Positions 18,527 through 18,598 of a stretch of DNA of 64,000 nt are shown here, piece after piece. The notes under the pieces are model-generated. The model did no database searches. It was not told the DNA's origin and worked only from the letters and a program-made list of their open reading frames with translations. Each line of letters starts with the position of its first letter. Position 1 is the stretch's first letter. The stretch lies in NCBI GenBank assembly GCA_000165345.1, contig CM000434.1:832001-896000 (forward strand), given 5' to 3'. Made by a program: the position numbers and the translations under genes.

Positions 18527-18598
18527 CCCCGGTACCTGGTTAAGTGCAGCACGTGCATGCGCATGTTTGCGCGGGGATTGGGCGGGAAAATTTGCTCT
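18527..18598. promoter_or_regulatory. GC-rich motif cluster (CCGGTACC, GCACGTGCATGCGCATG, GGGCGGGAAA) between two convergent 3' ends
   Basis: ccccggtacctggttaagtgcagcacgtgcatgcgcatgtttgcgcggggattgggcgggaaaatttgc lies directly 3' of the stop of the 2330-aa gene. Confidence 0.35.

Follow-up and report, generated by a model that had tools for sequence, protein, structure and literature searches.

A GC-rich module of 80 nt, lying between the 3' ends of two convergent genes of Cryptosporidium parvum, is probably a functional promoter-type DNA element, a reading to which we give a chance of about three in four. This reading is grounded in the identity of the motifs that the module contains, in the promoter-specific distribution of these motifs within the window (the whole 64-kb stretch of DNA that was analysed) and in the retention of their layout across species. 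The sequence grammar says "promoter", and the position says that there is no mRNA to serve. The likeliest role of the putative promoter, judging from the motifs and their placement, is to drive an antisense lncRNA, for which we see about even odds.

Position and composition of the module

The window belongs to C. parvum chromosome 6, and a 7.7-kb stretch of it compared with the CpBGF T2T assembly (GCA_035232765.1, CP141123.1) showed zero mismatches. A window coordinate plus 829,380 gives the CP141123.1 coordinate, so that 18527-18598 corresponds to 847,907-847,978. The PDI-like protein encoded to the left is identical to C. parvum CPATCC_002924 / CAD98406. The ankyrin protein encoded to the right is identical to C. 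parvum CPATCC_002925, of which CAD98407, also from chromosome 6, is a shorter version of 2255 aa. The two stop codons, TAA at 18370-18372 for the PDI-like gene and TAA at 18601-18603 (minus strand) for the ankyrin gene, leave a spacer of 228 nt separating the convergent 3' ends. The distance from module to stop is 1 nt on the ankyrin side and 148 nt on the PDI side (155 nt when counted from 18527). Because the module begins 1 nt past the ankyrin stop, the 3' UTR of the ankyrin mRNA necessarily takes in at least its first part.

The locus had been singled out by a reading of the letters alone (the sequence-only reading), and the letters are as described there, with CCCCGGTACC at 18527-18536, GCACGTGCATGCGCATG at 18549-18565 and GCGCGGGGATTGGGCGGGAAAA at 18569-18590. 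Its distance of 155 bp past the PDI-like stop is also correct, since 155 nt lie between the TAA at 18370-18372 and 18527. It had further placed the element 3 nt from the ankyrin stop; the adjacency stands and the figure does not, as two bases separate 18598 from the TAA at 18601-18603.

Table 1 Coordinates of the module, its motifs and the flanking genes in the window.
Feature	Position	Strand	Remarks
Left neighbour: 575-aa thioredoxin/PDI-like protein, C-terminal RDEL	16645..18372	+	CPATCC_002924
Conserved AT-rich block TATGCCTAAAACTAGTGGCTCATG	18470..18493		28 nt left of module; 4-genotype alignment
GC-rich motif module	18521..18600		57% GC vs 18% in remaining spacer; final 80 nt before ankyrin stop
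CCGGTACCTGG	18529..18539	+	Resembles lncRNA "motif 4" (CC..TACC.GG); best-conserved piece of the module (CCGRTACC)
GCACGTGC palindrome, CACGTG core	18549..18556		Possible variant of lncRNA "motif 5" (TTGTCCACATK)
ApiAP2_1 site CGCATGCAC	18553..18561	-	Plus strand reads GTGCATGCG; exact match to BGCATGCAH
TTTGCGCGGGG, weak second E2F-like site	18566..18576		Overlaps G-box GCGGGG 18571-18576 (consensus G.GGGG, PMC3734150)
Predicted E2F/DP site TTGGGCGGGAAA	18578..18589	+	Minus strand reads TTTCCCGCCCAA
Right neighbour: 2330-aa protein, N-terminal ankyrin repeats and multiple transmembrane segments	18601..25593	-	CPATCC_002925

The overall GC content of the 64-kb window is 30.6% (0.306). At window sizes of 40, 50 and 72 nt the module is the richest in GC of the whole 64 kb (0.675, 0.64 and 0.597), which bears out the earlier claim of the top GC content over about 70 bp; at 100 nt it drops to fourth place. 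Two tRNA genes and coding sequence supply the short windows that follow it in GC content. In AT-rich genomes, GC-rich islands are often structured non-coding RNA genes, and the presence of tRNA genes next in rank would agree with a small structured gene of this kind in the module (snoRNA, snRNA or Pol III product). However, an Rfam search of the whole window at the gathering score found the two tRNAs and no match in the module, a search of 18300-18800 with E up to 10 returned no match inside the module and three chance-level matches outside it, and ARAGORN found no tRNA in the module. Single-sequence folds of both strands were no better than those of shuffles (z = -0.95 and -1.5), and alignment folds gave consensus energies of -10.6 and -8.3 kcal/mol with covariation of approximately zero. 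The module thus shows neither the covariance-model match nor the conserved pairing by which a structured small RNA would be recognised. Together with the interspecies indels and the motif replacement described below, which are incompatible with a structured RNA, these results make such a gene highly improbable.

We also considered and rejected a hidden small gene. The ORFs that leave the module, whether to the left or to the right, are all of 50 aa or less, mostly with non-ATG starts or overlapping the module, and none that begins with ATG exceeds 50 aa. The nearest annotated ATGs, at 16645 and 25593, are 1.9 and 7 kb off, and the module is upstream of neither. The earlier statement that no coding start is nearby therefore agrees with both results.

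The motif content of the module departs clearly from chance. When the 80-nt module was shuffled 20,000 times with its dinucleotides preserved, a strict E2F site and GCATGC occurred together in 0.38% of the shuffles, and the two together with CCGRTACC in 0/20,000. Because shuffles of the module seldom or never recreate the combination, GC-richness alone is insufficient to account for its motifs. In the window as a whole, GGCGGGAA was observed 4 times (0.16 expected from shuffling), CCGGTACC 3 times (0.06 expected) and GCATGC 16 times (5.1 expected); CACGTG occurs just 3 times. The module sequence is more than chance, and the 3 occurrences of CCGGTACC against 0.06 expected suggest that this word is an undescribed promoter word.

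Motif identity and distribution in the window

The E2F/DP and ApiAP2 motif families are over-represented upstream of C. parvum genes (Oberstaller 2013, PMC3734150), and among the motifs in the 100 bp that precede 396 C. parvum lncRNAs E2F/DP and ApiAP2_1 are the top two (Li 2021, PMC7840661), 17 of these lncRNAs carrying both. Sporozoite ATAC-seq peaks are likewise dominated by E2F motifs (Xiao et al. 2025, 10.1101/2025.01.17.633476); there are 984 such peaks, of which roughly 96 are not classed as upstream-regulatory. Candidate sites for E2F/DP and for ApiAP2 (GCATGC class) are packed together in the 80 nt of the module, along with CCGRTACC and CACGTG/CCACATG, two more words that recur in promoters. 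Of the 12 positions of the C. parvum E2F motif TTTGGCGGGAAV, the predicted E2F/DP site TTGGGCGGGAAA agrees at 11; read on the minus strand, TTTCCCGCC (18580-18588) matches the canonical TTTSSCGC exactly; the site thus has the sequence by which E2F/DP sites are recognised (TTTSSCGC, TTTGGCGGGAAV or the core GGCGGG). The predicted ApiAP2_1 site, on the minus strand at 18553-18561, conforms to the published consensus BGCATGCAH (PMC3734150), or TGCATGCA. Motifs 4 and 5 of the lncRNA set, listed in table S3 of Li 2021 as CCCATACCAGGTGGA and TTGTCCACATK (PMC7840661), are similar to the two pieces with which the module opens. We give the likeness to motif 4 little weight by itself, because a single tandem repeat accounts for most of that motif. 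A CCAAT box (ATTGG, 18577-18581) was given no weight either, being unconserved in C. hominis and C. meleagridis.

To the left of the module, the AT-rich block TATGCCTAAAACTAGTGGCTCATG is kept in the alignment of C. parvum, C. hominis, C. meleagridis and the chipmunk genotype, and a TATA-like run also lies just left of the module, beside this block at 18470-18493. The block could be where either mRNA is polyadenylated, or it could be the initiator of a leftward transcript.

We mapped the motifs onto a rough gene map, made of long ORFs and of the genes called on the matching GenBank record. Of the 16 TTSSCGCC matches in the window, 15 are intergenic, and only the match at 18581 falls between two gene 3' ends. 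Each of the three remaining GGCGGGAA sites precedes a gene start by 230-500 nt. When 100-nt windows were scored for four motif families, the module was the densest cluster, with four of four families present, and the 10 further clusters that combine two or more families all flank the 5' end of a gene. There is some circularity in this ranking, since two of the four families were derived from the module itself. With the scan restricted to E2F and GCATGC, the module is among four clusters and is the sole one away from a 5' end. The GTCCACAT, GCATGC and E2F words of promoters are found together also in the 5' region of the ankyrin gene (about 26156-26502) and in 16026-16381, the 5' region common to the PDI-like gene and its divergent neighbour.

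The position of the module raises the alternative that it is a 3' factor-binding element acting on the flanking mRNAs, be it a roadblock terminator or insulator that keeps each of the two convergent polymerases out of the other's gene, or a 3' enhancer or gene-loop anchor with factors in common with the ankyrin promoter. It sits exactly at the convergent junction, its E2F site keeps close to the ankyrin stop in four species (see below), both flanking genes use the same GTCCACAT, GCATGC and E2F words in their 5' regions, and a lncRNA of this locus is absent among the Li 2021 records listed, all of which would suit such an element. Against this, only the module's spacer, of about six convergent spacers in the window, has E2F or GCATGC, which argues against a general termination device, and four species have the same convergent arrangement without the module. 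A general terminator or insulator would recur at other junctions and in all species of the same arrangement, and the module does neither. Published data tie these motifs to transcript starts (PMC7840661; 10.1101/2025.01.17.633476), and we found no precedent for an insulator or terminator in a 2025 review of Cryptosporidium gene regulation. We therefore regard a 3' element acting on the flanking mRNAs as unlikely. That the module is a factor-bound boundary, fixed approximately 20 nt beyond the stop and terminating or insulating convergent transcription or loop-anchoring to the ankyrin promoter, we regard as distinctly unlikely. If true, it would be the first sequence-defined 3' boundary element in an apicomplexan.

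Several further observations concern the same words elsewhere in the window. A strict E2F site at 26502 lies inside the 3' end of the CDS of the gene 26339-27562 (-), approximately 900 nt upstream of the ankyrin ATG at 25593, and is the only strict E2F site of the window within a CDS. GTCCACAT (Li 2021 "motif 5") and GCATGC are paired 26-52 nt apart in four 5' regions, at 16297/16328, 26156/26182, 47384/47332 and 50650/50697, including those upstream of the PDI-like and ankyrin genes; the pair looks like a composite promoter element. There is also a second small GC island, AAAAGGTACCCGGTACCTTTTT at 43899-43916, which is near-palindromic and, like the module, contains CCGGTACC. It lies approximately 190 nt past the stop of the giant gene 36907-43716 (+) and approximately 250 nt upstream of an apparent intron-containing plus-strand gene that begins at about 44162.

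Retention of the layout across Cryptosporidium

We compared the orthologous loci of ten further Cryptosporidium genomes, found via the PDI orthologue. The convergent gene order is kept in 11 of 11 species, and a GC island adjoins the ankyrin stop in seven of the 11, namely C. parvum, C. hominis, C. meleagridis, the chipmunk genotype, C. canis, the species of locus L011 and, in reduced form, C. ubiquitum. In four of these species the island has 55-61% GC, against 18-23% in the remaining spacer, and it is recognisable in the three more distant ones. In C. bovis, C. ryanae, C. xiaoi and C. serpentis the spacer is short and AT-rich, and the module is absent from it.

The motifs share the order CCGRTACC, CACGTG, GCATGC, E2F at similar distances from the stop, with all four words present in C. 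parvum alone. In four species CCGRTACC sits at -69 to -72 relative to the ankyrin stop; C. ubiquitum has it at -97, and the alignment columns of the word are invariant in five species. CACGTG or CACATGTG is found at -51 to -55 in C. parvum, C. hominis, C. canis and L011, GCATGC at -33 to -49 from the ankyrin stop in five species, and an E2F-like site 17-21 nt from it in C. parvum, C. meleagridis, C. canis and L011. The layout persists even in C. canis and L011, whose PDI identity is 62% and 57% and in which the remaining spacer looks unalignable by eye. In L011 a perfect TTGTCCACATG stands in place of the C. parvum GCACGTGCATGC/GCACGTGC and replaces GCATGC; GCGGGAAANTTTGC next to the stop is common, by eye, to C. 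parvum and L011. In C. ubiquitum (L008) a (GCAT)n run provides six overlapping GCATGC sites 53-73 nt before the ankyrin stop at 5981, and the orthologous position is without an E2F site. The replacement of one motif by another, as in L011, and the multiplication of GCATGC, as in C. ubiquitum, are typical of turnover at putative factor sites.

These comparisons bear on the possibility that the module acts in RNA, as an element of the ankyrin 3' UTR (UUUCCCGCC...GCAUGC...) or of a long PDI 3' UTR, where an RNA-binding protein would control stability, translation or polyadenylation. The distance from the stop codon is conserved, and at least the first part of the module is transcribed as ankyrin 3' UTR, as such an element would have it. 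However, conserved secondary structure is lacking in the folds, with covariation of about zero, the units that are kept are palindromes in the DNA and are the same as known factor sites, such sites elsewhere in the window mark untranscribed 5' regions, and the changes in L011 and C. ubiquitum are those typical of factor-site evolution. Since the pieces of the module (GGTACC, CACGTG and GCATGC) are palindromic and GCATGC is expanded in C. ubiquitum, dimeric DNA-binding factors fit better than an RNA element, which we consider very unlikely.

The module is not better conserved base by base than its surroundings. Between C. parvum and C. hominis the identity is 91.2% in the module and 98.6% in the AT-rich spacer, and between C. 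parvum and C. meleagridis it is 78.8% and 80.4%, respectively. In C. hominis (L009 5876-5955) the module has 7 differences in 80 positions, against 2 in 148 in the adjacent AT-rich spacer; four of the changes in the module appear by eye, relative to C. meleagridis and the chipmunk genotype, to be specific to the C. hominis lineage. In the one assembly examined, the E2F core reads GGCGAG in place of GGCGGG. Variation is found within C. parvum as well: two of nine loci (L017 and L021) have a G-run shorter by 1 nt at 18571-18576 (GCGCGGGG vs GCGCGGG), a polymorphism that alters the spacing from GCATGC to E2F. Judged from these alignments, what is retained is composition, motif types and motif order, with the exact bases kept no better than those of the neighbouring spacer.

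The faster evolution of the module than of its flanks between C. parvum and C. hominis, the loss of the C. hominis E2F core and the absence of the module in four species are what a chance sequence or a decaying relic, functionless today, would be expected to show. We see only a slim chance of this, as the word counts far exceed the shuffle expectation, the GC island is held within an AT-rich spacer in four species and is recognisable in three more, and the order and spacing of the motifs persist in the more distant lineages.

Near the ankyrin stop we also noticed what may be a recurrent word, TGTGAC in C. bovis, C. xiaoi, C. serpentis and L011, and CGTGAC in C. canis. These words fall within the final 25-70 nt before the stop (L012, L015, L014, L011 and L010), and the species concerned include some without the GC module.

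Possible transcripts and comparison with known systems

The sequence-only reading had called the cluster promoter-like. This is supported at the level of sequence grammar by the E2F/DP and ApiAP2 motifs, their distribution in 5' regions and the cross-species layout, and the 3'-end or termination and insulator options that it had also named have less support than a promoter. As a promoter-type element, the module would recruit Pol II at the 3'-3' junction with no mRNA to serve, and a non-coding antisense transcript would start at the module, running rightward into the ankyrin 3' end, leftward into the PDI-like 3' end, or both. From the motifs and their layout we infer factor binding, initiation of transcription and its possible directions. 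Transcription both ways is proposed because many promoters of C. parvum are bidirectional (PMC7840661; 10.1101/2025.01.17.633476). Given that the module is anchored to the ankyrin stop and that E2F sites lie within 100 bp of lncRNA starts, a rightward transcript would be predicted to start inside the last ankyrin codons. The orientation of the E2F site was considered as a guide to direction and found uninformative, since two counts of our own disagree: of the six oriented E2F sites that lie in tandem spacers of the window, five have GGCGSSAA pointing toward the gene, whereas TTCCCGCC in the Li 2021 table is split about evenly between the strands (PMC7840661).

Among the 396 lncRNAs, 92% are antisense, with a bias toward the 3' end of the sense gene (PMC7840661), and this class of 3'-biased antisense lncRNAs is known for approximately 10% of C. 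parvum genes (PMC7840661). The module has the position expected of their promoters, at the 3' end of a sense gene and with no downstream coding potential. Twelve strings taken from both flanks, in both orientations, had no match among the Li 2021 lncRNA records listed, which include Cp_lnc_396 and not Cp_lnc_380. The identifiers CPATCC_002923-002926 are likewise absent from the Li 2021 supplements listed, an absence of little weight given that GenBank and CryptoDB numbering may differ. The CpBGF annotation holds 766 lncRNAs, plus UTRs (PMC12179316).

If a transcript starts here, the module would add an antisense lncRNA and a partnerless promoter to the C. parvum catalogue. It would be a single locus of a phenomenon already described genome-wide, and the gain would be incremental. 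Should no transcript start here, the module would instead be a candidate boundary or regulatory element at a 3' end, a rarity in a genome with none known. The grammar of CCGRTACC, CACGTG, GCATGC and E2F, retained across intestinal Cryptosporidium, offers a compact 80-nt test case, both for the cooperation of E2F/DP and ApiAP2 sites and for the effect of antisense transcription on a very large membrane-protein gene.

In budding yeast, transcription-factor roadblock terminators of the Reb1/Rap1 type stand at gene ends. The module is like them in having a predicted site for a DNA-binding factor just past the end of a gene, where the genome is compact and transcription converges. It is unlike them in that its motifs are activator-type promoter motifs and that most convergent spacers of the window are without them, and we know of no evidence for a roadblock-terminator mechanism in Cryptosporidium. 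The antisense lncRNA promoters of C. parvum described by Li 2021 (PMC7840661) have the same two leading motifs, words like motifs 4 and 5, a location at gene 3' ends and no downstream coding potential, all of which the module shares. They differ from it in being mostly paired head-to-head with an upstream mRNA (309 of 363 antisense RNAs use a promoter common with one; PMC7840661), while the module lies between two 3' ends with no mRNA partner; and unlike the members of this class, the module locus has no transcript among the catalogue records listed. The upstream regions of C. parvum coding genes (PMC3734150; Xiao et al. 2025) differ from the module in serving a protein-coding start, and they share with it both the vocabulary and the density of motifs, as exemplified by 16026-16381.
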